Origin: a bacterium
GTDB taxonomy: Bacteria; Patescibacteriota; Doudnabacteria; UBA920
Reading direction: 5' to 3'
Assembly (NCBI GenBank): GCA_016699995.1
Contig: CP064996.1
Coordinates: 837,747 to 901,746 of the forward strand
DNA length: 64,000 nt
Part shown: positions 3,121 to 52,015 of the stretch, piece after piece
Layout: the number at the start of each line of letters is the position of its first letter
Position numbering within the stretch: the first letter of the stretch is position 1
Translations under genes and position numbers: made by a program
Notes under the pieces: model-generated
Databases searched by the model: none
What the model was told of the DNA's origin: nothing
Seen by the model: only the letters and a program-made list of their open reading frames with translations

Positions 3121-3624
3121 TTAGCTTCCAAAAATGCCACCGCCGCTGCTGTCGCCAGAAACGAAGCGGTAAACGATTTGAACAATAACGTAAGACAGTA
3201 CGATAATAACCACACCGATCAATGCATTGAAGATTGCGGTACGGCCAGCTTTAGCTCCTTCTTCATTACCACCGGCGAGAATGTATCGGAAACCACCGTA
3301 AATTAAGAAGATAACTGCCAAGATAAAGGCAATTGCTAACGCCCAGTTGATTACAGTCACAAAGATTTCTGCCAAACCGCCTTCATTACAGCGGATACCA
3401 GTTTCTTCTGGACAATCATCAACGAAATCATCTACTAATTGCGCATGACCTACTTGAGGGGCCATCATTAATAACGGCATCAAAGCAATACCGATAGCAG
3501 CAATTGCCTGAACAATTGTAGTTAAATTTAAGTTCTTTAATATTTGTTTCAAATTTCTCACCACCCTTCTGCTTGAGCTTTTAAACTCATATCGCAAAGT
3601 GCGAGTTACTGAGATTCTGGCCAA
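3121..3624 (-). CDS. secreted protein with C-terminal TrbC/VirB2-like pilin domain (paralog 3 of 7)
   Basis: ORF; hydrophobic N-terminal segment; C-terminal LIYGGFRYILAGGNEEGAKAGRTAIFNALIGVVIIVLSY; true start uncertain. Confidence 0.65.
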   Translation of the reverse strand: MARISVTRTLRYEFKSSSRRVVRNLKQILKNLNLTTIVQAIAAIGIALMPLLMMAPQVGHAQLVDDFVDDCPEETGIRCNEGGLAEIFVTVINWALAIAFILAVIFLIYGGFRYILAGGNEEGAKAGRTAIFNALIGVVIIVLSYVIVQIVYRFVSGDSSGGGIFGS

Positions 3625-3671
3625 TAAATCGGCTGGAATTCATTAACCTTATTGTACTATACAGATCGCGA

Positions 3672-4136
3672 TTAGAAAAGCTGATTGTCAACAATCAAAT
3701 TTACAACGATGGTAACTATGGCTGTCGCAATGATTGCCAAGGCCACGCCTCCCAACGTATACATCATCACAGTCTTAGCTTTCTTGATCTGCGCATCGTT
3801 GCCGCGGCCGGTCATATACAAATATCCGCCGTAGATCATGGCTAAAACTGCCCCGATACCGACTACAAAATAAAGCCAGTAAACGATCTTTTTGTAAACC
3901 GCACCTTCGTCGCAATACTTTGGTAGTTCCTTTAGACGGTCTCCGCCGAAACCAGTGCTATATTCATCAATCTGATTCTGCAAACCTTCGCACCCCCAGC
4001 TGTCTACATCATTGCCAGGAGCCGGCGTGGGTGCAGATTGAGCCAAAGCAGATTGGAACAGATTAACTTTCGACGCGCCAATAAAAGCAACAGCTCCGAT
4101 CAAAATTGTCAGTAATAACAAAAATTTTAGTTTCAT
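3672..4136 (-). CDS. secreted protein with C-terminal TrbC/VirB2-like pilin domain (paralog 4 of 7)
   Basis: ORF; signal peptide MKLKFLLLLTILIGAVAFIGA; C-terminal MIYGGYLYMTGRGNDAQIKKAKTVMMYTLGGVALAI. Confidence 0.7.
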   Translation of the reverse strand: MKLKFLLLLTILIGAVAFIGASKVNLFQSALAQSAPTPAPGNDVDSWGCEGLQNQIDEYSTGFGGDRLKELPKYCDEGAVYKKIVYWLYFVVGIGAVLAMIYGGYLYMTGRGNDAQIKKAKTVMMYTLGGVALAIIATAIVTIVVNLIVDNQLF

Positions 4137-4139
4137 ATA

Positions 4140-4994
4140 TTATCTTGCAATAACTCGTTCTATTATCGCCACAATACTAAATGACATTAAGCATACAATC
4201 AACCCGCCGATCGCCCACATCACTGCCTTCTTGCCGTTCGTTAAGCGAGTCTCATTGCCCGAAGACGTAACCATTTGGAAGCCCCCCCAAATAATCACTG
4301 CAACTGCTATCATCGCTGCAAGCATCAGTAAAATATTGATGATGCGAATAATCAACTCGGGCACCGAATCAAATTCCAATGGATTAGAAAATGTGCCAAG
4401 TACAGCATCAAAATCTCCGCCGATCACCTTAACAGAAGAGTCGACGTCAGCACCTCCCCCGCCGGTACCAGAACCGTCGTCATTACCATTGCCGTCTCCG
4501 CTGCCGCCGTCGTCATCATCACCGGTACCTCCACCCCCGCCGCCACCTTCTTGCGGACCTTTGCCGATTTTCAACTTTACAGTTCTTTCCTGATATACGC
4601 TAGAGAAGTCATTGGAACCCAAAGTGTTGTTAGTCTGAAATTTAATGGTATAGTTGCCATTGCCGATACCTAAATTATTTCGCAAGTAAACACTCTTTTC
4701 TGTAGAACCCTGGTTTAGAACGAAGTTATCTGTATTATTGCTCCAGGAATAGGTAAAGCGAGCATTCTTCCCACAAGGATGAAAACCTAAAGAGCTGGCA
4801 GGGACTTTAACATGAACCTGAACCTCGGTGCTTAAATCATCAACCCTTAAATCGATAGAGCCCGTAGGGGCATTAGGATGATAAAGCTTAAAGTCGGCCT
4901 GACAGTTGGATTGGGCAAATATCTTGGTTGGTACTAGCATAGCCGAACCAACATACAGCGCAGCGATAAAGGCAATAATAAATTTATTCAACAT
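4140..4994 (-). CDS. secreted protein with C-terminal TrbC/VirB2-like pilin domain (paralog 5 of 7); Gly/Asp-rich linker
   Basis: ORF; signal peptide; Gly/Asp-rich linker (GGGGGGGTGDDDDGGSGDGNGNDDGSG); C-terminal IIWGGFQMVTSSGNETRLTNGKKAVMWAIGGLIV. Confidence 0.7.
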   Translation of the reverse strand: MLNKFIIAFIAALYVGSAMLVPTKIFAQSNCQADFKLYHPNAPTGSIDLRVDDLSTEVQVHVKVPASSLGFHPCGKNARFTYSWSNNTDNFVLNQGSTEKSVYLRNNLGIGNGNYTIKFQTNNTLGSNDFSSVYQERTVKLKIGKGPQEGGGGGGGTGDDDDGGSGDGNGNDDGSGTGGGGADVDSSVKVIGGDFDAVLGTFSNPLEFDSVPELIIRIINILLMLAAMIAVAVIIWGGFQMVTSSGNETRLTNGKKAVMWAIGGLIVCLMSFSIVAIIERVIAR

Positions 4995-4997
4995 ATT

Positions 4998-5453
4998 TTA
5001 TAGTAAGGACTGAATGATATTGACCAAAGCAAAAGCACTCACAGCCACCACTAAGCCGATGACTGCCCAGGTCAAAGTAGCCTTTGCAGATTTGATCCTC
5101 GATTCATTACCCTGATTGAAGATCAGCATAACTCCTGCGTAGATAATGACTATAGTAGATACCATGGCAATTATCATTAGCAACCAATTGATAAGCTTCG
5201 CGACTAAATCAGAAACATCTCCGCTATTGGAAGGGTTTTTAATGCTTAAAGAACCTTCCCAGTCGACACCATCATAAGTGCGAGCAACATAGCCAGAACC
5301 TTCCTGAGGCTTGGTAGTGGAGGTAGCTGGAGGCTTTACAGTAGAAGTGGCGAGGTCCTTCGGCTTTGGCGGTTCGACCGCGAGCACTTGGACAGGTGCC
5401 AACAAATAAATACTGAAAGAAAGTAATATCAAAATTTTCTTAAGTACTCTCAT
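4998..5453 (-). CDS. secreted protein with C-terminal TrbC/VirB2-like pilin domain (paralog 6 of 7)
   Basis: ORF; signal peptide MRVLKKILILLSFSIYLLAPVQVLA; C-terminal IIYAGVMLIFNQGNESRIKSAKATLTWAVIGLVVAVSAF. Confidence 0.7.
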   Translation of the reverse strand: MRVLKKILILLSFSIYLLAPVQVLAVEPPKPKDLATSTVKPPATSTTKPQEGSGYVARTYDGVDWEGSLSIKNPSNSGDVSDLVAKLINWLLMIIAMVSTIVIIYAGVMLIFNQGNESRIKSAKATLTWAVIGLVVAVSAFALVNIIQSLL

Positions 5454-5457
5454 GATA

Positions 5458-6258
5458 TTAATCAGAATTAATATATTCTCTCGGATTACTGAGGATCAAG
5501 CCCCCATTGCGAATACCAATATTAAGCGAACCTGCAAGAAGGGAGTTAACCAAAACAAACGCAATTGCAACCAACACTAACCCACCCACTGCTCCTCCCA
5601 GCTTTCTTTTTGCTGCTGTGAGCTTAGATTGGTCGCCGCCGTTGAACTGAGAAATGATGATCTGAACCCCTGAGATAATAATAAATAAAACGGCAACCAA
5701 GCCCGCCATCGTAATAAGGTAATTGATGATAATTACCATTGCTCTAAACAGATGAGTGACATTGCATGGAGTATCTACAGTATTACCGCAAATTACAAAA
5801 CCCGACCGGCCGGATTCATCTACATCTTCTCCGGTGTCTTTATCTAAGTTTCCAGGCGGTGGCGTGCCTTCGCCTCCTTGAGGTTTATCCGGAGCCCGAT
5901 AATTATCTTTTATTGCCTTAATCACCGCGGCGCTTGCGCCGGCATCTGTTAAGGCCTTTTCGTCGGCGGAGGTCGGCTTAAAGTCGACTCCAGACTTGTT
6001 AATTTGCTTGATCAGTTCTGCTGCTGGCGGCTTCTTTTCTTTAACCATAGTCAGGACTTTTGACTTAGTCAAAGCCGTACCTGTGTAAGCCTTGCCGGAA
6101 GCTTCTTGAACTTTTGCACCGCCATCCTGCGCTTGAGCCAGCACGTCGCGCGCTGTTCCGGAAGAAATTATTAAAGCAAAAATTAAACACACCGCGGTTA
6201 ACCCCGCTAGCAGAAAAGGCCCGAAACGGCTCTTTAACTTATCATTAATGTACTTCAT
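5458..6258 (-). CDS. secreted protein with C-terminal TrbC/VirB2-like pilin domain (paralog 7 of 7)
   Basis: ORF; N-terminal TM/signal; C-terminal IIISGVQIIISQFNGGDQSKLTAAKRKLGGAVGGLVLVAIAFVLV. Confidence 0.65.
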   Translation of the reverse strand: MKYINDKLKSRFGPFLLAGLTAVCLIFALIISSGTARDVLAQAQDGGAKVQEASGKAYTGTALTKSKVLTMVKEKKPPAAELIKQINKSGVDFKPTSADEKALTDAGASAAVIKAIKDNYRAPDKPQGGEGTPPPGNLDKDTGEDVDESGRSGFVICGNTVDTPCNVTHLFRAMVIIINYLITMAGLVAVLFIIISGVQIIISQFNGGDQSKLTAAKRKLGGAVGGLVLVAIAFVLVNSLLAGSLNIGIRNGGLILSNPREYINSD

Positions 6259-21447: not shown

Positions 21448-22086
21448 ATGGAAGCTTACGGACTAACCGGAAACATCGGCTGCGGCAAGAGCACAGTAGC
21501 TAAAATACTCGCTAAATTTAAAGGCGTAGCTGTCTTTGACTGCGATCAAATCTCCAAGGAACTTATGTCGAGCGGCAGATACATTAAAGAAATTAATACA
21601 ATTTTACAAGATAATGTATTCGACATCACCCATGGCAACCGTCCCGACCTGCCTAAGATAGCAAAGATAATTTTTAGCCATCCGGAGCGGAAAATGGCTT
21701 TGGAAAAATTTATTCATCCATTTGTATGGCAAGAAGTCGAACAGCAGGTTAATGCCCAGGACGGCAAAAAGCTCTGCGTAGTCGAATCGGCGATTATCTT
21801 CGAAACCAGAAATCAGGACAGATTTACAGATATCATTACCGTAACATGCAATCAGGTAGAACAGCTGCGGCGCTTAAGAGAAAATCGCAAGATGAGTGAG
21901 GACCAAATCAAAGCGCGCATCGTTCAGCAAGTCCCTTCTAGCTATAAAGAAAAAAATGCTAGATATGTGATTAACACTGACTGCAGTCCGGAACAGCTCG
22001 AGCAAAGAGTAGAATCACTTTACCGGCAGCTGCGGTTTCGCAATTGGCGGCAGCTTAAAAATAACTCACGTCTATTTCTGACGTGA
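21448..22086 (+). CDS. coaE: dephospho-CoA kinase
   Basis: YGLTGNIGCGKSTVAKIL P-loop at N-terminus; AGGAGG-like RBS before ATG at 21448. Confidence 0.85.
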   Translation: MEAYGLTGNIGCGKSTVAKILAKFKGVAVFDCDQISKELMSSGRYIKEINTILQDNVFDITHGNRPDLPKIAKIIFSHPERKMALEKFIHPFVWQEVEQQVNAQDGKKLCVVESAIIFETRNQDRFTDIITVTCNQVEQLRRLRENRKMSEDQIKARIVQQVPSSYKEKNARYVINTDCSPEQLEQRVESLYRQLRFRNWRQLKNNSRLFLT

Positions 22087-22524
22087 TTTTTTATATGCTT
22101 CAATGTATTTTTTCACCGACTGATTCTTTAAAACTTGCTGTATAGTTTTTAAATCCAAATCTTCAATTTTCTTAAACCGCAAACAGCTTTTTCCCATATC
22201 CAATTTCTTGCCAGACTTTTTATATCCATCAACCAGCATCTTGTAAGTCTTTGGGTCGCCGTATACCGTCATTAGATACAAAGCGTAATAATTTTTTTGA
22301 ACCGCCAGACCCATAAAAGGCAATGGCTGCTTTGGATCATTTAAATAGCCTTCGGGAAATATTTTTAGCGGGACAGAATAGCAAATCATTCCCCATTGCA
22401 TAAACTCAGCAACTTCTTTCGGTAAGAAAGATTTCAAATTTTTGCGCACATACTCTATAACAGTTTTCTGCTCTGCTGTTAGCGCTTTGATATATTCACT
22501 GGGAGTCTTGGCTTTTGATTGCAT
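22072..22524 (-). CDS. DUF1801 (YdhG-like) domain protein
   Basis: 151 aa from internal Met of track ORF 22072..22905; the upstream part of that ORF is a spurious translation of the repeat. Confidence 0.6.
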   Translation of the reverse strand: MQSKAKTPSEYIKALTAEQKTVIEYVRKNLKSFLPKEVAEFMQWGMICYSVPLKIFPEGYLNDPKQPLPFMGLAVQKNYYALYLMTVYGDPKTYKMLVDGYKKSGKKLDMGKSCLRFKKIEDLDLKTIQQVLKNQSVKKYIEAYKKSRQK

Positions 22525-22532
22525 AAATGTCT

Positions 22533-22929
22533 TTGGCGGTGTTTTCTGGACGAAGTTCGAACATTTTTTGAGCAAAACCCCCAATAAGGAAGCCAGCCCC
22601 GCCACTGCTCGGAAACCTCGCCACACCACAGAAAAATACTCTTTGCTCTTTTCATTTTGCGCGCGCCCGATTTCTTTTTCTTCTAATGAAAAGAGTATTT
22701 TTCTGCGGTGTTCTGCCTTCCAAGTATTCAGGCAGGTGGCGGGGCTGTCCTCAATTTGATTTCGAAAAGAAAAAGCGGAATTCCCCCCAAACCCCCCTTC
22801 CGCTTTTTCTTTTCTCAAACGGAACGGGAACGGAAGCAGGCGGGCAAAAATTCCTTCCCCCCAACCCCCTTCCTTTTTGCCCGCCTGCTTGGGCTTCGCC
22901 CCCAAAACTTTTCGGCGGGACGGCGGGAC
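22533..22929. repeat. IR1-L: 397-bp GC-rich structured repeat, inverted copy of 30380..30776
   Basis: Base-by-base comparison: reverse complement matches the 30380..30776 copy with about 3 mismatches; nested palindromes and C-tract loops. Confidence 0.9.
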
Positions 22930-25625
22930 TATTTAATATTAAGCTTTTCACCTCTTTTTTCAAATGCCTCTTTTCCGCCTTCAAGTTTTAGCAATTCCTC
23001 TCTGTTTTTTGTGTCCTCAATTGTCGTTTCAATAACTTCCGTTTGCCCCGATTCATTTTTCAAAATGAAAATTTTCTCTGCATCTCCGTTGATTACAAAA
23101 TTTGCGTTATGGGTGGCAAAAATGATTTGGCGATCTGATTTTTTCTCTTTCAACAAAGGCACAAGATAATTCGCAATCAACGAGCTATCAAGATGAGCCT
23201 CTGGCTCATCAATAATTAGCGGATAATTCCCAAACAAAAGTAAAATCACAACTACCGCCGTACATCTTTGTCCGAAAGACGCTTGTTCAACATCTCGATT
23301 GTCATATTTGACTTGGATTATTTTGTTTAGCTTCACATCGTACAAATGTTTATCCCTAATTGCCTGAAAGATTTGAAAATTTTTCTCTTCCTTAAAAACC
23401 TCATCAAGAAATTTGGTGTATTTTTTATCGCTCTTCTGGGATTGTTGGATAATTTTTCTAACATCGTCAAATGAGTTTTTGGAAAAAGTTTGCTCATTGC
23501 CCGTTATAAATTCGCACACTTCTTTGCCTCGTTCCGTATCGTGGTACTTTGTGAAAAAATAATTGTAAAACTCTTCTGCCAGAGCAACCCAAGCACCTTT
23601 TTCGTTGAAAGAATATTCGAGTGAAATTTGCTTGATATCTTTCCCTTGATTGTCTTCAAACTGTTTCTTCAATAAATCCTGCAAGGGTTTCAATATCTCG
23701 GTAATTTTTGTTTCGTAATTTTGTTTATTTGTGCTTAATCCAGCGACAACATTTTCGAGCGTTGCAAGCACTTTTGTTTTTGCCTCAATTTGAGCGGTTA
23801 AGCTCTTAATTTCGCTTTCCAAGTTCGTTATTTTTTGTGGAGCGGATTTGATCTGCTCAACGCTTTCGGGAGTATAACCAGCTTTCTCAATTAGTGTCTT
23901 GGCTTTAGCTTCCAATTCTGTCAGAGCTTTTTTGATCTCCGATTCTTTCTTTGCTTCCTCTGCAAACTTTTCTTCTTTCAATAATTCAACCGCTTCAGCA
24001 ATCTTGGCTACTGCAAGGTCATAGGCTTTTTCGTATTCAGTTTTTTCAACTTCTTCTTTTGATTCTTCAGATTCAGATTCTGGAATTAGATCAGACAGTG
24101 AATTTTTAAGATCAGATATATTTTCTTTCCAATCTTCTAACTCCTGCAACTCTTTTGATTTATCTGTAATTCCAGTAATAACCTCGTTATATTCTTTGCT
24201 CGATAATACTTTAACGCTACTTTCAAGCGTCCTTTTTTCTTTTTCTTTTGCAATTTTTTGATCCTCAAGAGTTTTCAAATCAGAAACGGCTTGAATAATT
24301 TGACCAAGTTTGCCTTTCAAGGATTCAATTTCTTCCTCGTATTCCTCTAAAATATTACCTGCGTGCGAATTAGCTCTGTCATAAATTGCTTGCGTAAATT
24401 TAGATTTATCCCGCGCAAAAGTTTCTATTTCGCTTTGAGCTAAAAATTCAAAAATTTCAGTTCCGCCAAAGGAAAAAATATTGTTGTCATTCGGATCAAA
24501 AGAGGGGCTTAAATTATTCCAAAACTTTTTTGGAGAATCGGGGTTGTTTGAATGCAATCCCAGAAAATTCAAAATAGTGCTTTTTCCTGATCCTCTACCA
24601 CCGATAAAACAATTAAAATATGGGCTTAAGTTATATGAGCCGTTATTCCCAGCAAAACAAAACTTATCTTCGCCAACTTTTGCGTCGGTAGGAATTTTTA
24701 GAGTAATTGTGTCAATCGTGTTTATCGGCTTTTTTGGTTTTTCCTCACCAATAAAAATTCTTGTTTCTGGCTCATAAACAATTTGCTTCAATCCCTCAAA
24801 TGTTGGCTCGGCTTTAATCCAGCAATATTTTTCAATCGGTTTTGAATCTTTATCCTTTAGCTTTCCAATTGGATAATCTTGAGCGTGTGAATCGCTTCCT
24901 TTTATACAAGCCTTTTTTCGTAAAAACCAACCGCGAAACTGATCTTGTGTAAATTTTACAGTTCCGTCAGTTTTCAAATCAGATTTCCAAAGGAAAAAAT
25001 CAATTTGTTTTTGTCGTGAAGAACCTAAAACATCAGCAGTTCTTATGTAATTACTCTTTATCCACTCATCTGAATTCGGATCAATTTCATCAATACCGCC
25101 GTATTCATCATACGGAAGCCACAATAAAAATTTATCCTTAAATTTTTCGTCCTGGTTTAATTCAGTTAGCAAAGAACCGAGGGAGATTTTCTTATCTTTC
25201 AGTTTGGCTTTGTCATCATAATCGCCACTGATTTTTGTTCCGTTGCTTTTCAACCCCTTAATTAAATTTTCAATGTCAGCAATTTGTATTTGGTCATCAA
25301 AAATAATATGAAAATTGAAATGAGTTGCCCCGTTTGTTGTGGTGTTTTTGTTTTGTACGCTTTCAGTCATTCGAAATTCAACAACGGGCAGGATTTTCTT
25401 ACCGCCAACATCTAAATCGCCCTTGTCGATTTTTTCTTTGATTTGTTTGTATCCTGCTACTGAAAAATAATCATTTATCCCAATAACATCACAATCAGCG
25501 TTTTTCAGTTGAGTTTCAAATTGATCCCAAGTACCAGAAAAGCCGTCAGAAGCAGGGCTATGCACATGCAAATCCCATTTTCTCCATTCGGAGCCGATAT
25601 TTGGTTTTGGAATCTTACTGCTCAT
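22929..25625 (-). CDS. PHP-domain phosphoesterase fused to Rad50/SMC-like ABC ATPase with long coiled-coil insert
   Basis: 898 aa; N-terminal PHP-like WDLHVHSPASDG..VIGINDY; Walker A GGRGSGKST; about 400 aa coiled coil; C-terminal signature ASFGQR, Walker B LIIDEPEAHLD, H-loop IFATHNANF. Confidence 0.8.
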   Translation of the reverse strand: MSSKIPKPNIGSEWRKWDLHVHSPASDGFSGTWDQFETQLKNADCDVIGINDYFSVAGYKQIKEKIDKGDLDVGGKKILPVVEFRMTESVQNKNTTTNGATHFNFHIIFDDQIQIADIENLIKGLKSNGTKISGDYDDKAKLKDKKISLGSLLTELNQDEKFKDKFLLWLPYDEYGGIDEIDPNSDEWIKSNYIRTADVLGSSRQKQIDFFLWKSDLKTDGTVKFTQDQFRGWFLRKKACIKGSDSHAQDYPIGKLKDKDSKPIEKYCWIKAEPTFEGLKQIVYEPETRIFIGEEKPKKPINTIDTITLKIPTDAKVGEDKFCFAGNNGSYNLSPYFNCFIGGRGSGKSTILNFLGLHSNNPDSPKKFWNNLSPSFDPNDNNIFSFGGTEIFEFLAQSEIETFARDKSKFTQAIYDRANSHAGNILEEYEEEIESLKGKLGQIIQAVSDLKTLEDQKIAKEKEKRTLESSVKVLSSKEYNEVITGITDKSKELQELEDWKENISDLKNSLSDLIPESESEESKEEVEKTEYEKAYDLAVAKIAEAVELLKEEKFAEEAKKESEIKKALTELEAKAKTLIEKAGYTPESVEQIKSAPQKITNLESEIKSLTAQIEAKTKVLATLENVVAGLSTNKQNYETKITEILKPLQDLLKKQFEDNQGKDIKQISLEYSFNEKGAWVALAEEFYNYFFTKYHDTERGKEVCEFITGNEQTFSKNSFDDVRKIIQQSQKSDKKYTKFLDEVFKEEKNFQIFQAIRDKHLYDVKLNKIIQVKYDNRDVEQASFGQRCTAVVVILLLFGNYPLIIDEPEAHLDSSLIANYLVPLLKEKKSDRQIIFATHNANFVINGDAEKIFILKNESGQTEVIETTIEDTKNREELLKLEGGKEAFEKRGEKLNIK

Positions 25626-25627
25626 AT

Positions 25628-27463
25628 TTATTCTGAAAAAATTTTCACTTTTATATCTTCCTTGAGTTTATGTATTGAATTTTCATATTCCTTTATTTGA
25701 TTTTCTCTTTCTTCAATCTTTTTCATTATCTTTTTTTGTACTTCCATTGGAGGTAACGGAAAACTAAAATTTTGGATTGCACCTAATTTGATATACGCCA
25801 TAGTATTTCCCAGTTTTTGTTGTAGAACAGAATCTTTCAAAGTGTTCTTTAACACGAAATATAAGTATTTAGGTTCAATATTAACAAAATCAGTTAGAAC
25901 ATATGTTCTTTGGTATGCTTCAAATTTACCCTTAAAATAAGTTACTGTGCCAACATCTCCGTTGCCTGCTATAAGTATCGCTTCTGCATCAAATGAAAAA
26001 ACATCACTATAAGTATGATTTTGGGCGCAAGTAAAAAAAGGGTACTTTCCATTTGGATTGCCTTCATTAACATTTTTCTTTCCCGTTCTTATTTTGCAAA
26101 TGTCGCCAAGTTTAACGCTTTCCCACTTACTTTTTCCTCGGTGGTCAGTTTGAAAATATGTTTTGTAATTTAGACTAACTTCACTGTGGTTTAATATCTC
26201 GTCTTTACTTACCCAAAAAACTTTTTTGCTTGGATTCTTTTTGCCATTTTTCCAATCAGTGATTACTTGGAGGGCTTCAGGCAAATCATTTTTTTCTATT
26301 TTTTGTCGTTTTGCACCGAGATCATAGCCGTCTGCTTCAACATTAATAAACAAAATATCTTTAACTTTTTTTGAAATTGAATTGTCAAAAAAAAGTACAC
26401 TTGTTTTAATCGTTGCGGAATATGGATTAAAAATTCCTACTGGCAAAGAAACGATCGCATATAACCCATCTTCTACCATTTTTTTTCTTAACGATTGATT
26501 AGCATTGCTTGTTTGAAACATTATTCCCTCAGGGACTACAATTCCACCTCGACCACTGATATTTAAATGTTCTATGATGTAATCAACAAACAAAACTTCT
26601 GCACGATTTGCCTGTATAGAAAATCGCTTGTGTGGCACTACTCCTCCACGAGGTGTCATAAAAGGAGGATTTGCCATTATCACATCAAAAGTTTCGTCCC
26701 AACGCTTTTCACTGGTCAGCGAATCATACTCGTGAATTTTTGGCTCTGGGAATCCGTGCAGATACATATTCACAAGCGCCAATTTCACCATATCAGGCGA
26801 AATATCATAGCCTGCCAAATTATTCATCAATTTTAATTTTTCGTCTGGCGTGAGCGGTTTTTCTTTGTTGGTTTTCAAAATGTGCTTGTAGGCAGAAATC
26901 AAAAATCCAGCCGTTCCGCAAGCGGGATCAAGAATTGTTTCGTTCTTTTTTGGATCAACAACTTCAACAATAAAATCAATAATGTGGCGAGGCGTGCGGA
27001 ATTGTCCCGCGTCGCCTTGGCTTCCGAGAATAGAAAGCAAATATTCAAAAGCATTGCCTAAATTTTCGCTGTGTTCGTAATTAAATTCGTTGATCTCTTT
27101 GAGGAATAGCGAAAGCGTGCGAGGGTCGTTGTATGGCAAAAACGCGCCTTTGAAAATATCACGGAACAATTGCGGAATATGCGGATTTTTCGACATATTC
27201 GTAATTGCTTGAACATACAAATCAAGGCGTTCTTGCCCCGAAAGTTTATTGTCCAAAAGTTTCGTCCAAGCGTATTGCGAAAATCCGTTGGCGAAAAATT
27301 TTGCCTCTCCGCCGAGTTCTTCAGATTCCTTGTCCATATCGTCCATAAACTTATAGACAAGAGCGGTCGTGATTTGTTCAACTTGAGCTTTTGGGTCTGG
27401 CACTTTACCGACAAGAATTTGTCGGGCAGAGTCTAGTTTTCGTTTTGTAGTTTGATCAAGCAT
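25628..27463 (-). CDS. hsdM: N6-adenine DNA methyltransferase (HsdM-like) fused to a single target-recognition domain
   Basis: 611 aa; AdoMet motif DPACGTAGFL, catalytic NPPF; C-terminal HsdS-like TRD plus coiled-coil tail. Confidence 0.85.
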   Translation of the reverse strand: MLDQTTKRKLDSARQILVGKVPDPKAQVEQITTALVYKFMDDMDKESEELGGEAKFFANGFSQYAWTKLLDNKLSGQERLDLYVQAITNMSKNPHIPQLFRDIFKGAFLPYNDPRTLSLFLKEINEFNYEHSENLGNAFEYLLSILGSQGDAGQFRTPRHIIDFIVEVVDPKKNETILDPACGTAGFLISAYKHILKTNKEKPLTPDEKLKLMNNLAGYDISPDMVKLALVNMYLHGFPEPKIHEYDSLTSEKRWDETFDVIMANPPFMTPRGGVVPHKRFSIQANRAEVLFVDYIIEHLNISGRGGIVVPEGIMFQTSNANQSLRKKMVEDGLYAIVSLPVGIFNPYSATIKTSVLFFDNSISKKVKDILFINVEADGYDLGAKRQKIEKNDLPEALQVITDWKNGKKNPSKKVFWVSKDEILNHSEVSLNYKTYFQTDHRGKSKWESVKLGDICKIRTGKKNVNEGNPNGKYPFFTCAQNHTYSDVFSFDAEAILIAGNGDVGTVTYFKGKFEAYQRTYVLTDFVNIEPKYLYFVLKNTLKDSVLQQKLGNTMAYIKLGAIQNFSFPLPPMEVQKKIMKKIEERENQIKEYENSIHKLKEDIKVKIFSE

Positions 27464-27473
27464 AATTTTTTGG

Positions 27474-29990
27474 TTACCTCATATAAACATTAACGGGAAC
27501 ATAGTCTTTCACATATTCAGGGACAGTTTCCCGCCAGCCGTTTAATTCCTTAAATTCCGACATTGTAAATCCAGCGTACACATTCAATTCCGCAAATTGT
27601 TTTTTGTTGATAATCTCGCGAAATTTTTCGTCTGTAACATACGCTTTCAGATAATTTTTGATATGCGGAACATATTTGCTTTCGGGCTTGTAGATTGAGA
27701 TAAACTTTTCGCATTCTTCTTCCAGTTTTTCGTCTTTGGATTTGAAAACATCAATCAAGCCGAAAGCTCTTTCCAAAAATTCACGCCAAGAAATACGGCG
27801 ATCAAGATTTTCGCTCTTGCGGATTTTTTCAAGATTCAGGAATAATTGCGGTTTGTCTTCGTATTTGTCGCGCATAATCTGCACGGCTTTGTCCCATTGC
27901 TCATTTTCCACGGCAGATTTTACTTCCGTGTCTTTTTGCAATTCTTCACGGGCTTTTTCAAAAAGTTTGCGATCAACTTTCATTCCCTCGATTCCGACAG
28001 GCGTTTCGGTAAGGGATTTTACTTTGTCGGGATTAAAAACTTCTATTTCATCAATATCAACGCCGACAGGTCCCTCTCCGCCAGTTCCTTTTTGTTTGAT
28101 TGGTAATTGCAAAATCTCGTCATAATCAAACTTTTCTTCAAAGTATTCGCAGTTTGCGAAGAAATCGAAAAATTTGAAATGATCTTTTGGCTTTTTGTGT
28201 TTCTCGCCATATTCGTCGGTATATTCAAAAGTGAATTTTCTTGTGCCTCGTCCTTTGATCTGAATAAAATCAGTCGGCGAAAAGATTGGGCGCATAAGCG
28301 CAAGATTCAAAATATCTTGGCAATCATAACCAGTCGTCATCATTCCGACAGTTACGCAAATTCTCGTTTTGCTGGATTTGTAGTTTTCCAAAAACTTGGT
28401 GTGTCCGTTTAGGTTGTTGTTGGCAAAATTGATTGTGAATTGCTGGCTGTCCGCAATATTTGAGGTGATTTGCACGGCAAAATCGGAATTGTATTTGTCG
28501 GGCCAAAGTTGGCTCGCCATTTGGTTGAGCGTTTGCGTTATTTTGGAAGCGTGCTTTTGACTGACGCAAAAGACAATAGTTTTGCCGATTTCACCGCTTA
28601 TCGGGTCTTTAAGAGAATTTTCAATGAGTGTCTGGCAAAAGACGCGATTTGTTTTTTCGGAAAAGAATTTCTTTTCAAAATCCTTTTGGAAAAATGTTTC
28701 TTCACTTTCTGTGCCATTCTCATCTTCAACCATAACCGCATAGCCCTTTTCCGATAGCAATTCGGTAGTGATGTCGGTTCGCGCGTCTGAAACGATAGGG
28801 TTGATCAAAAATCCTTCCTTTACGCCGTCAAGCAAACTGAAACGGAAAGTCGGCTCGCCATTTTTACAGCCAAAAGTCGTATAAGTGTCCAAGAGTTGCC
28901 GTCTTTCCCAAGCTCGTGGGTCTTTTTGTGATAATTTTTGCGGATCAACATTTTTCAAATAATCTTTCGGTGTTGCGGTTAAGCCCAATTTGTAGCCGAT
29001 AAAATATTCAAAAACTGCTCGCGAGTTTCCGCCTATTGCTCGGTGTGATTCATCGGCGATAATCAAATCAAAATCAGTCGGCGAGAAAAGTTTTTTATAT
29101 TTATCTTGCGCCGAAAGACTTTGAACTGTTGAAATGACAATTTCCGCTTTTTTCCAGTCGTCGCGGTTTTGCTTGTAAATAACAGAAGAAAAGTCATTGC
29201 TCAAATAGCGGACAAAGTTTTTATGGGCTTGGTCTTCCAATTCTAAACGATCAACCAAAAACAGAATTCTTTTAGCGTTGCCTGTTCGTAAAAACAGTTT
29301 GATAACGGCGGCGGAAATTAGAGTTTTTCCTGTGCCTGTCGCCATTTCAAAAAGAAAGCGATCATTTCCAGCTTCGGCGGACTTTTGCAAGGCGTGAATT
29401 GCTTTGAGTTGATACGGGCGCAAAATTCGCAAATTTTCGTCCCAAAGATATTGTTCACGAGTATCTTCTTTCTGATAACGAGGATCGTCTTTGAAATTTG
29501 GATTTTGCGTGAGGGCGATATAATCATCATTGACTTCCTCGTCTGCTAAACGCTGATTGTTGGGCTTAAAATCCTGCCTGTGCTTCAAAGATTCTTGCGT
29601 TGGAAATTCTGTGATAATTTCAGGATCGCCTCGTTCCAAATCCCAAAAATAATGAAGGTTGCCGTTTGAGAGAATTACAAAACGGGCGTTTTCAGTGTGA
29701 GCGTATTTTCTGGCTTGTTCTTTTCCGTCCAGTGGGTTTTTGTCTTCTTTTTTGGCTTCCAGAATAACGAGCGGGAAACCTTTTTCATCGAGCAATAAAA
29801 AATCAATAAAGCCGTTTTTTGTGGATTCAAAATCTTCACCAAAAGCGTCAATGTCTTTTTGGGTAAGTTTTACATTCGGTTCAAGCGAAATGTTTGCTTG
29901 TCCTTTTTCATTATCAAAAAATCGCCAGCCTGCTTGTTCAAGCAGTTTGTTTATTTTTATTCGCGCTTTTGCTTCTTTAGTATTTGCCAT
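27474..29990 (-). CDS. hsdR: restriction endonuclease R subunit (HsdR-like: PD-(D/E)xK nuclease + SF2 helicase)
   Basis: 838 aa; N-terminal nuclease FIDFLLLDEKGFPLVILEAKK; helicase motif I EMATGTGKT, motif II LIIADESHR. Confidence 0.85.
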   Translation of the reverse strand: MANTKEAKARIKINKLLEQAGWRFFDNEKGQANISLEPNVKLTQKDIDAFGEDFESTKNGFIDFLLLDEKGFPLVILEAKKEDKNPLDGKEQARKYAHTENARFVILSNGNLHYFWDLERGDPEIITEFPTQESLKHRQDFKPNNQRLADEEVNDDYIALTQNPNFKDDPRYQKEDTREQYLWDENLRILRPYQLKAIHALQKSAEAGNDRFLFEMATGTGKTLISAAVIKLFLRTGNAKRILFLVDRLELEDQAHKNFVRYLSNDFSSVIYKQNRDDWKKAEIVISTVQSLSAQDKYKKLFSPTDFDLIIADESHRAIGGNSRAVFEYFIGYKLGLTATPKDYLKNVDPQKLSQKDPRAWERRQLLDTYTTFGCKNGEPTFRFSLLDGVKEGFLINPIVSDARTDITTELLSEKGYAVMVEDENGTESEETFFQKDFEKKFFSEKTNRVFCQTLIENSLKDPISGEIGKTIVFCVSQKHASKITQTLNQMASQLWPDKYNSDFAVQITSNIADSQQFTINFANNNLNGHTKFLENYKSSKTRICVTVGMMTTGYDCQDILNLALMRPIFSPTDFIQIKGRGTRKFTFEYTDEYGEKHKKPKDHFKFFDFFANCEYFEEKFDYDEILQLPIKQKGTGGEGPVGVDIDEIEVFNPDKVKSLTETPVGIEGMKVDRKLFEKAREELQKDTEVKSAVENEQWDKAVQIMRDKYEDKPQLFLNLEKIRKSENLDRRISWREFLERAFGLIDVFKSKDEKLEEECEKFISIYKPESKYVPHIKNYLKAYVTDEKFREIINKKQFAELNVYAGFTMSEFKELNGWRETVPEYVKDYVPVNVYMR

Positions 29991-29994
29991 AGTT

Positions 29995-30204
29995 TTATTT
30001 CATTAAATCATCAAGGGAAACGCCGAGGGCGTCCGCGATTTTTTTGACTGTATCAATGGTGGGGTTGGGAGTAGAGCCAGCTTCAATCTTGGCGATTGTA
30101 TGAAAAGCCAAATCCGCCTTTTTTGAAAGCTGATCTTGCGAAATGCCGAGCTTGTTTCGGTATTTCTTTATATTGTCGCCAATTGTGGATTTTTCGTTTG
30201 ACAT
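29995..30204 (-). CDS. XRE-family HTH regulator (candidate controller protein of the restriction operon)
   Basis: 69 aa; HTH LGISQDQLSKKADLAFHTIAKIE; first gene of the tightly packed operon. Confidence 0.8.
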   Translation of the reverse strand: MSNEKSTIGDNIKKYRNKLGISQDQLSKKADLAFHTIAKIEAGSTPNPTIDTVKKIADALGVSLDDLMK

Positions 30205-30263
30205 AATCGTATAGTTTTACTATTATAGTTGTATAGTATTAAAAACATCACTGATTTATAGTT

Positions 30264-30292
30264 AGTATATGGAATTTTTATCAATTAGTCAA
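30264..30292 (-). promoter_or_regulatory. sigma70-like promoter candidate for the controller-hsdR-hsdM-PHP/ABC operon (TTGACT, 17-nt spacer, TATACT)
   Basis: Hexamers on minus strand about 60 nt upstream of HTH start; leader contains ACTATA direct/inverted repeats. Confidence 0.35.
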
Positions 30293-30379
30293 ACAAAATT
30301 AGGGAGTTCCTTTGATATAACGCGCGCACGGGTGGGTGGGGCAAGCGTTATTCCTCTTTTATCCTCTCTTTTGTTTTCT

Positions 30380-30776
30380 GTCCCGCCGTCCCGCCGAAAA
30401 GTTTTGGGGGCGAAGCCCAAGCAGGCGGGCAAAAAGGAAGGGGGTTGGGGGGAAGGAATTTTTGCCCGCCTGCTTCCGATCCCGTTCCGTTTGAGAAAAG
30501 AAAAAGCGGAAGGGGGGTTTGGGGGGAATTCCGCTTTTCCTTTTCGAAATCAAATTGTGGACAGCCCCGCCACCTGCCTGAATACTTGGAAGGCAGAACA
30601 CCGCAGAAAAATACTCTTTTCATTAGAAGAAAAAGAAATCGGGCGCGCGCAAAATGAAAAGAGCAAAGAGTATTTTTCTGTGGTGTGGCGAGGTTTCCGA
30701 GCAGTGGCGGGGCTGGCTTCCTTATTGGGGGTTTTGCTCAAAAAATGTTCGAACTTCGTCCAGAAAACACCGCCAA
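30380..30776. repeat. IR1-R: 397-bp GC-rich structured repeat, inverted copy of 22533..22929
   Basis: Two long hairpins with G-tract loops (GGGGGTTGGGGGG and GGGGGGTTTGGGGGG) plus a 14-bp-arm palindrome GAAAAATACTCTTT..AAAGAGTATTTTTC. Confidence 0.9.
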
Positions 30777-30903
30777 TTTTCACTTTTTGTGAAATCGTAA
30801 GGAATTGCCTCGGCGCAAAGCGCCTCGGCATGGTATTTTTCCGCAATTTTGAAGGCATTTTTGAAATCCAAAAACAAAGTGCGGTCGGCAATGCGGAAGT
30901 TCG
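30770..30903. repeat. IR2-L: 134-bp repeat, inverted copy of 32387..32520; overlaps IR1-R by the heptamer CCGCCAA
   Basis: Exact reverse-complement match to the recombinase 3' end / tRNA-Ser junction copy. Confidence 0.85.
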
Positions 30904-31017
30904 CAGAGCGAAGCTCTGGCAAAATGAAATTTTGCAAACCAATCTTTTTTCTTTTGCTTTCAGCGAAAGGTTGAGCGCATTTTTCTTTGATTGCCCAAAA
31001 GCTAATCTAAAAACAAT

Positions 31018-32631
<1,614 letters not shown>

Positions 32632-51941: not shown

Positions 51942-52015
51942 GGGGCGGGTCCCTGGTTGGGCAGGATAGACTCGTCACCCTATCCCAGCGGGTTCGATTC
52001 CCGTCCGCTCCACCA
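51942..52015 (+). ncRNA. tRNA-like element with canonical acceptor stem (G3:U70), T-arm and CCA but non-canonical anticodon arm
   Basis: 74 nt; GGGGCGG..GCGGGTTCGATTCCCGT CCGCTCC A CCA; central region folds as 4-6 bp stem with 10-nt loop; partial inverted copy at about 52057..52080. Confidence 0.4.

Follow-up and report, generated by a model that had tools for sequence, protein, structure and literature searches.

What does a PHP phosphoesterase-type domain joined to a Rad50/SMC-like ABC ATPase do behind the genes of a type I restriction system? The question is raised by a 64,000-nucleotide stretch of a bacterial genome (Patescibacteriota; Doudnabacteria; UBA920; assembly GCA_016699995.1, contig CP064996.1, positions 837,747 to 901,746 of the forward strand), called the window below, in which an 898-codon gene, here referred to as trlF, is the last of an operon with the order hsdR - hsdM/S - trlF. 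A prediction made from the DNA letters had described this fusion and compared it with the PrrC and RloC modules of type I restriction loci, the PHP domain serving as a different effector. The explanation that we favour, and regard as reasonably probable, is a PHP/ABC fusion of the TrlF family, sister to the anti-phage protein Ppl, that forms the last gene of an acquired restriction operon and, by homology to Ppl, would have a defence mechanism directed at DNA ends.

The reading frame of trlF lies on the minus strand, which the original prediction left unsaid. It starts with ATG and ends with a stop codon at 22929-22931, and the plus-strand reading of the same interval is full of stops. The NCBI annotation includes an identical protein, and the relatives found at E ≤ 1e-5 number at least 3,781; this is therefore not a chance open reading frame. 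The translation reproduced the predicted coordinates and every motif quoted with them. The PHP N-terminal motif WDLHVHSPASDG occupies residues 17-28, and is followed by VIGINDY (47-53) and the PHP-type GSDSH (243-247). The ATPase part contains the Walker A GGRGSGKST (342-350), a Q-loop at Gln397, the signature-like ASFGQR (782-787), the Walker B/D-loop LIIDEPEAHLD (803-813) and the H-loop IFATHNANF (835-843). These make up a complete, hydrolysis-type ABC motif set of the SMC/Rad50 kind, with Walker B reading D-E, split by a coiled coil. A cysteine scan detected no CxxC in the whole protein and no cysteine in residues 420-660, in agreement with the predicted absence of a hook. Walker A and the signature, between which a coiled-coil insert of roughly 400 residues had been predicted, lie about 435 residues apart, and about 235 of these (425-658) form long helices in the AlphaFold2 model.

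The protein scores 464.5 bits (E 1.2e-138) against the NCBIfam model NF045780, 'TrlF family AAA-like ATPase', with a cut-off of 350, and its residues 11-895 align with positions 2-943 of the 944 in the profile. Its identity as a TrlF-family, Ppl-like PHP/ABC-ATPase fusion is settled. The family takes its name from the temperature-restriction locus trlR-trlF-trlG of Photorhabdus laumondii, and the window protein exceeds the equivalog cut-off of that family over its full length. The Photorhabdus locus contains trlG (AlbA_2/HATPase_c_4) and trlR, whereas the window gene ends a type I restriction operon; linkage to trlG and trlR characterises that founding locus and plays no part in how the hidden Markov model defines the family. 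The nearest relatives, 95% and 93% identical, come from metagenome-assembled genomes (MAGs) of Candidatus Saccharibacteria, on the strength of which a Saccharibacteria/Patescibacteria source is probable for the window. Using two exact C-terminal motif patterns, we found relatives in 394 of 185,579 species genomes, which span Patescibacteria, Bacteroidota, Campylobacterota (including Helicobacter pylori), Verrucomicrobiota, Planctomycetota, Firmicutes and others. Plasmids carry relatives too, in 1,142 records, of which 827 are conjugative. Among the plasmid records listed, the majority already bear the annotation 'TrlF family AAA-like ATPase' or 'anti-phage protein Ppl', and RefSeq applies the name TrlF to many of the listed copies. 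The novelty implied by the original prediction does not hold: the fusion is a curated and named family, and the biochemistry of its sister family Ppl is published. Architecture and family are already known and named, and there is no novel effector swap.

Some relatives (proteins P0092, P0101 and P0111; loci L003-L005 and L021) have a different N-terminal domain, with WDLQVQT in the place of WDLHVHS. In this subgroup the His of DxH is replaced by Arg and the usual PHP ligands are missing. P0092 nevertheless carries a precomputed Pfam PHP hit.

Ppl is a single-gene defence protein that combines an ATPase with a PHP domain. According to a review (PMC12904381), the PHP domain is a 3'-5' exonuclease on single-stranded DNA, which needs relief of inhibition by nucleoside triphosphates and DNA ends with a 3'-OH; the primary reference, Xu et al. 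(Mol Cell 2026;86:180), is known to us as cited in PMC13434339. For comparison we used the E. coli ppl gene annotated on plasmid pHeBE7 (L086:4428-7103), one plasmid copy without a flanking restriction gene. The alignment of the window TrlF family matched Ppl in hhalign with a probability of 99.8% (E 4.8e-29) over 771 aligned columns, from residue 10 to the C-terminal region of the window protein and from residue 2 to 889 of Ppl. BLASTP between the two proteins recovered two collinear segments (E 4e-18 and 4e-16), and the PADLOC model for Ppl matched with 113 bits (E 2.5e-33) in three stretches. The proteins are about 20% identical and collinear, each with an N-terminal PHP domain, an ABC head, a coiled-coil insert and a C-terminal head. 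They have in common the HxH, E and DxH motifs of the PHP domain, Walker A, the signature Gln and the H-loop. Motif II reads D-H in Ppl and D-Y in the window protein, and Walker B reads D-Q in Ppl and D-E in the window protein. Judged by these alignments, the window protein is a homologue of Ppl and not an orthologue.

Pfam recognised the C-terminal ABC half only (AAA_21, E 1.4e-10, above cut-off), and the PHP model PF02811 had no match in the window protein at E ≤ 1. The missing match is uninformative, since PF02811 also misses E. coli Ppl; among the relatives it was reached by 4 of 47, with a best E of 1.9e-5. A profile of the N-terminal region yielded only a non-significant match to YcdX among PDB sequences, and searching the PDB by sequence turned up no solved structure for either the TrlF family or Ppl. 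AlphaFold2 models were obtained for the full-length protein (predicted local distance difference test, pLDDT, 87.2; predicted template modelling score, pTM, 0.72) and for residues 1-300 (pLDDT 89.5, pTM 0.89). Foldseek matched the full model to the SMC, MukB, JetC, Rad50 and RecN heads with their coiled coils (E 3e-6 to 1e-3), as well as to the PHP domains of PolC and RNase AM. The modelled N-terminal domain has the distorted (beta/alpha)7 barrel of PHP proteins, and structure prediction settles the question: this domain is a PHP fold. The profile check proposed by the original prediction thus ends with Pfam blind to the domain, yet with a significant PHP fold. Models, structural matches and motifs agree with the predicted order of a PHP domain, an ABC head and a hookless coiled coil. 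It had also been asked whether the PHP domain sits at the head or at the coiled-coil apex. In the models the domain ends about 10 residues ahead of the first strand of the ABC head, and this chain topology places it on the head. The apex is predicted to be a disordered acidic loop (residues 517-525), with neither an SMC hinge nor a Rad50-type CxxC zinc hook.

Conservation was examined in a MAFFT alignment of 77 family members. Seven residues are invariant (D18, E83, D245, K348, Q786, D806 and H839), and H20, H22, H247, Q397, S783 and E807 occur in 73 members or more, Q397 in 76. The C-terminal ABC motifs are kept in at least 76 members. The canonical PHP ligands H20, H22, E83, H106, D245 and H247 are conserved, motif II is D52-Y53, and the motif-V position is uncertain and variable. 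Walker B reads D-E in 76 of the 77 members, including the window protein, and Ppl has Gln at the position of residue 807. Lacking this catalytic Glu, Ppl may be able to bind nucleotide but not to hydrolyse it, whereas TrlF proteins would probably hydrolyse it.

In the window, the stop codon of the methyltransferase gene and the ATG of trlF are separated by 2 nt (TAA-AT-ATG). Both this gap and the operon shared with restriction genes had been correctly predicted. The GC content is 33-36% across trlF and hsdM and 40-47% in the flanks, and horizontal acquisition of the hsdR - hsdM/S - trlF operon is part of our preferred explanation. The original prediction had called for a survey of genomes for hsd neighbours. 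We called open reading frames in 85 loci (80 genome loci and five more), detected restriction genes with iterated profiles and seeds, and retained 76 non-redundant loci. In 19 of the 76 loci trlF has a restriction-modification gene on its own strand no more than 150 nt away, and in 25 one lies within 5 kb; many of the contigs are short, so these counts are lower bounds. The neighbours belong to type I, type IIG, type III-like and GmrSD systems, and the junctions are 0-15 nt or overlapping in most of the adjacent cases. Pfam annotation of the immediate upstream genes (64 loci) yielded Methylase_S (11), N6_Mtase (6), Eco57I (5), and MmeI_Mtase, N6_N4_Mtase, ResIII and GmrSD_N (2 each). Downstream, HsdR-type proteins occur in 2-3 loci. 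Serine recombinases are neighbours in 7 loci, or 6 after removal of a duplicate locus. Clustering of the neighbours revealed no conserved partner such as trlG or an SbcD/Mre11-like nuclease, and no recurrent family beyond restriction genes, serine recombinases and a strain-level synteny block of H. pylori. One relative (P0111, from the subgroup with the divergent N-terminal domain) adjoins a DISARM-like SNF2/PLD block with SIR2 and an integrase, and on plasmids the annotated copies have Abi, Gabija-like, PLD and CcdAB genes as neighbours. Literature searches recovered no paper that connects PHP-ATPase genes with type I restriction operons, which is not proof of absence.

The order hsdR - hsdM/S fusion - trlF is kept in three other loci, L011, L017 and L026, with TrlF identities of 73%, 55% and 46% and HsdMS identities of 54-61%. 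The fusion proteins (L011:8001-9899, L017:8105-9997, L026:6980-9463) have a single target recognition domain (TRD) and 611-633 amino acids in the window, L011 and L017; that of L026 has 827 amino acids with extra C-terminal S-like sequence. The fusion of half an S subunit to M implies a symmetric recognition complex. Loci L033 and L066, from Planctomycetota and Leptospirales, place trlF between hsdS and hsdR (hsdM-hsdS-trlF-hsdR), where neighbouring genes either overlap or are 1 nt apart; this is the classical position of prrC. In the Verrucomicrobiota locus L042 hsdR lies about 3 kb downstream of trlF. Other restriction types are found at this place as well: trlF follows a type IIG enzyme in L012 and a type III-like methylase in L023. 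A direct comparison is offered by L007, an independent Saccharibacteria MAG. There a 93%-identical trlF has the same flanks, but the place of hsdR and hsdMS is taken by an EcoRI-type methylase and a GmrSD-HNH enzyme (L007:446-5724 against 22535-30432 of the window), an apparent exchange of the restriction module before a constant trlF. In L001 (85% TrlF identity) trlF stands alone, with the tRNA-Ser region 3.7 kb from it.

Full-length homology to the validated anti-phage protein Ppl, together with restriction-modification genes as the commonest neighbours, makes a defence role the likeliest, as the original prediction had proposed. By analogy with Ppl and from the defence-island context, the most likely function would be anti-phage or anti-plasmid defence by nucleotide-controlled, DNA-end-directed nucleolysis. 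Two TrlF copies would engage through their ATPase heads under the control of nucleotide, as expected from homology to Ppl and the general behaviour of SMC/Rad50-type heads. The short coiled coil and the heads would sense DNA, probably free ends, and the head-attached PHP domain would degrade DNA with accessible 3' ends and so stop replication of the phage or plasmid. Co-transcription with a restriction enzyme would then provide a two-layer defence, in which TrlF attacks the ends made by restriction or acts when restriction fails. That trlF is so closely and so often built into restriction operons suggests that the genes are co-expressed and that they may act in synergy; functional coupling of the two activities is put forward here as a hypothesis. 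The gene is clearly also able to work as a stand-alone module.

Several observations weigh against an end-directed, restriction-coupled defence function. The score against the Ppl equivalog model NF042955 is 143.1 bits, far from the cut-off of 1000, so that the transfer of function from Ppl is an extrapolation across about 20% identity. Biochemical or phage data on a TrlF-family protein were not found in the literature searched. In the founding Photorhabdus study all suppressor mutations fell in trlG and none in trlF, and no trlF phenotype is described. About two thirds of the loci have no restriction gene nearby, and restriction coupling is thus not a family-wide requirement. Conservation of the active sites stops short of identity, and TrlF may therefore differ from Ppl in its substrate and its nucleotide control. 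The motif-II His is replaced by Tyr53 in the window protein and by Tyr in 63 of the 77 members, whereas Ppl and 13 others keep His. In our reading of the hhalign alignment the His of the Ppl sequence 'LAHID' lies opposite Tyr172, but MAFFT places Ile there, and position 172 varies across the members (S, T, Y, A, V). Judging from these substitutions, both the metal site and the substrate of TrlF may be unlike those of Ppl, and the contrast of D-E with D-Q in Walker B means that the control by nucleotide may be different too. The same residues are the grounds for supposing that part of the trinuclear metal site has been lost, position 172 being possibly a further ligand, and that the PHP domain is a phosphatase, an RNase or a non-catalytic sensor instead of a DNA exonuclease. 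PHP folds do include RNase AM, histidinol phosphatase and tyrosine phosphatases; we nevertheless give this alternative little credence.

The resemblance to PrrC and RloC raises the possibility of a guard, with TrlF held latent on the type I complex, or monitoring it, until a phage anti-restriction protein disables the enzyme and so releases TrlF, whose PHP domain would carry out an abortive cleavage of host or phage nucleic acid. PrrC and RloC are likewise ABC-type ATPases fused to a nucleolytic effector and encoded within hsd operons. The positional side of the analogy drawn by the original prediction stands: trlF takes the same place in hsd loci, L033 and L066 included, and is coupled to the methyltransferase gene by 2 nt in the window. 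The ATPase part also weakly matches, in PADLOC and Foldseek, AriA, the ABC ATPase with which PARIS detects an anti-restriction protein. The effector side of the analogy does not stand. In PrrC and RloC the effector is a C-terminal anticodon nuclease acting on tRNA, whereas the window protein lacks an anticodon-nuclease domain, carries its PHP fold at the N-terminus and has the second half of the ABC head as its C-terminus; the targets of its characterised relative are DNA ends and not tRNA. No PrrC or RloC model was among the PADLOC or NCBIfam matches of the protein, and no sequence relationship to them was seen beyond the generic ABC head. The nearly identical trlF of L007 does not follow type I genes, in other relatives the preceding gene is of type IIG or type III-like, or no restriction gene is present, and Ppl by published accounts works as a single gene. 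Since the restriction partner is interchangeable and stand-alone copies exist, a specific partnership with HsdR or HsdM proteins is unlikely, and the presence of trlF alone or beside other restriction types and defence genes argues against an obligatory type I partnership. A guard of this type therefore appears unlikely to us. The AAA_15/AAA_21-type head of AriA is common to TrlF, OLD, Gabija GajA, PARIS AriA/AriB, Lamassu LmuB and Wadjet JetC, and PADLOC matches of the window protein include AriA (1e-8), Old (2.5e-5), GajA (4e-4) and LmuB (2e-3). These systems also pair an ATPase sensor with a nuclease effector, but the effector is a Toprim, DUF4435 or Cap4 domain or a separate subunit, and in none of them is a PHP domain present.

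Induction of the Photorhabdus operon that contains trlF halts growth at 36 degrees C, and the family bears the name of this gene, so that a toxin-like function is conceivable: a stress-triggered growth-arrest or addiction module of a mobile island, acting on the cell rather than on phages. The frequent carriage by conjugative plasmids, one plasmid copy beside ccdAB and the recombinase-linked island of the window are consistent with it. The suppressors in trlG speak against it, as do neighbours that are overwhelmingly defence genes, and neither trlG nor trlR has a homologue in the window or as a recurrent neighbour in the 76 loci. We hold such a module to be improbable. Lower still is the probability of a housekeeping enzyme that processes or repairs DNA ends, a single-chain analogue of SbcCD/Mre11-Rad50 found near restriction genes by chance. 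Its architecture is analogous, a Rad50/SMC-like head with an antiparallel coiled coil and a metal-dependent phosphoesterase nuclease, the heads are structurally similar, Foldseek returned the Rad50, RecN and SMC heads, and the H. pylori gene adjoins fmt and DUF2130. However, the nuclease of Mre11/SbcD is calcineurin-like and separate, whereas the nuclease-like domain of TrlF is a PHP domain fused in cis, and the coiled coil of TrlF is short and without a zinc hook. The family is not a conserved housekeeping gene: its distribution among the species genomes is patchy, its GC content is atypical, carriage on plasmids and islands is common, and its closest characterised relative is a defence protein. 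The original prediction would have been undermined by a typical location in repair operons; no repair genes are among the recurrent neighbours in the 76 loci.

The surroundings of the operon (Table 1) point to a mobile setting. The 397-nt inverted repeat, whose left arm starts at the final base of the trlF stop codon, encloses the hsdR-hsdMS-trlF cassette in full (7.45 kb). Its arms are made up of long hairpins rich in GC, in which an Rfam search found only the tRNA, and they yield two spurious-looking reading frames (22072..22905 on the minus strand and 30269..31030 on the plus strand; 97% identical over 124 amino acids). The same element lies 3' of trlF in L007, where the contig breaks inside the other arm, and this argues that the repeat is real and not an assembly artefact. 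Possible readings are a cassette able to invert or move, and an intergenic element that is repeated. In L012, a Chlorobiaceae MAG, a trlF with 82% DNA identity to the window gene (3353-6252) has pieces of the same repeat arm behind it; either the gene has recently moved between phyla that are very far apart, or the contig was mis-binned. The 3' end of the serine recombinase gene runs through the right arm of the 134-nt repeat and over tRNA-Ser(cga). This arm abuts the 3' end of the tRNA gene, which is the probable integration site of the island. The two inverted repeats are nested in the order A' ... A B ... B' tRNA. Promoter and terminator scans of the window produced no more sites than expected from shuffled sequence. 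Membership of the operon in a MADS system, considered for its mad2 and mad3 matches, was ruled out on score: HsdMS reaches 103 bits of the 720 required for MAD2 and 23.7 of the 400 for MAD5, and the mad3 match is a generic ATPase match (E 7.5e-10). Elsewhere in the window, at 51942-52015, ARAGORN reported a tRNA-like gene whose anticodon has four bases (cgtc) and to which no amino acid is assigned.

Table 1. Coordinates, in the numbering of the window, of trlF, its domains and the elements around it
Feature	Position	Strand	Evidence
trlF-like gene, 898-aa PHP domain/ABC ATPase fusion	22929..25625	-	open reading frame, NF045780, hhalign to Ppl
PHP-fold domain, residues ~14-293	24747..25586	-	conserved D18, H20, H22, D52, Y53, E83, R85, H106, D245, H247
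ABC head, N-terminal half, residues ~304-420	24366..24716	-	Walker A G342-T350 (24576-24602), Q-loop Q397; translation, conservation, Foldseek
Antiparallel coiled-coil insert, residues ~425-658, apex loop 512-529, no Cys/zinc hook	23652..24353	-	AlphaFold2 helices, low-pLDDT apex, Cys scan
Helical subdomain and ABC head, C-terminal half, residues ~667-898	22932..23627	-	SFGQ 783-786, D806-E807, D-loop, H839; Pfam AAA_21
hsdM fused to single-TRD hsdS, 611 aa	25628..27463	-	Pfam N6_Mtase 3.9e-56, Methylase_S 7.7e-23, HsdM_N
hsdR, EcoAI-like type I restriction subunit, 838 aa	27474..29990	-	Pfam ResIII 1.1e-39, HSDR_N; NCBIfam restrict_EcoAI 4.3e-74, below model cut-off
Promoter-like site upstream of hsdR, TTGACT-17-TATACT (weak evidence only)	30264..30292	-	consensus scan
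397-nt inverted repeat, left arm, hairpin-rich	22533..22929	.	99% complementary to 30380-30776
397-nt inverted repeat, right arm, upstream of hsdR	30380..30776	.	complementarity
Large serine recombinase gene	31018..32631	+	Pfam Resolvase, Recombinase, Zn_ribbon_recom
Second inverted repeat, 134 nt, brackets most of the serine recombinase gene	30770-30903 and 32387-32520		100% complementary
tRNA-Ser(cga)	32518..32604	-	ARAGORN; Rfam tRNA 57.2 bits

Beyond the favoured explanation, we tentatively suggest a broader picture, for which the chances appear considerably lower. TrlF-family proteins may be a recurrent, exchangeable 'second-stage' part of type I, IIG, III-like and GmrSD operons, degrading the ends made by restriction or firing when restriction is blocked, and in Saccharibacteria-like genomes the entire cassette of restriction genes and trlF may occupy a hot spot flanked by inverted repeats and linked to a serine recombinase, in which the restriction genes change and trlF stays.

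The finding adds no new protein architecture, and its value lies in the genomic context. The TrlF branch is repeatedly and tightly wired into restriction-modification operons across distant phyla, including candidate-phyla bacteria with tiny genomes. The quantified linkage to four restriction types, the cassette exchange and the inverted-repeat/recombinase setting are seemingly undescribed in the literature searched. With nearly identical trlF genes behind different restriction modules, the window and L007 form a natural comparison for functional coupling. The context thereby provides a testable idea for TrlF: end-directed nucleolysis that would be coupled to restriction.

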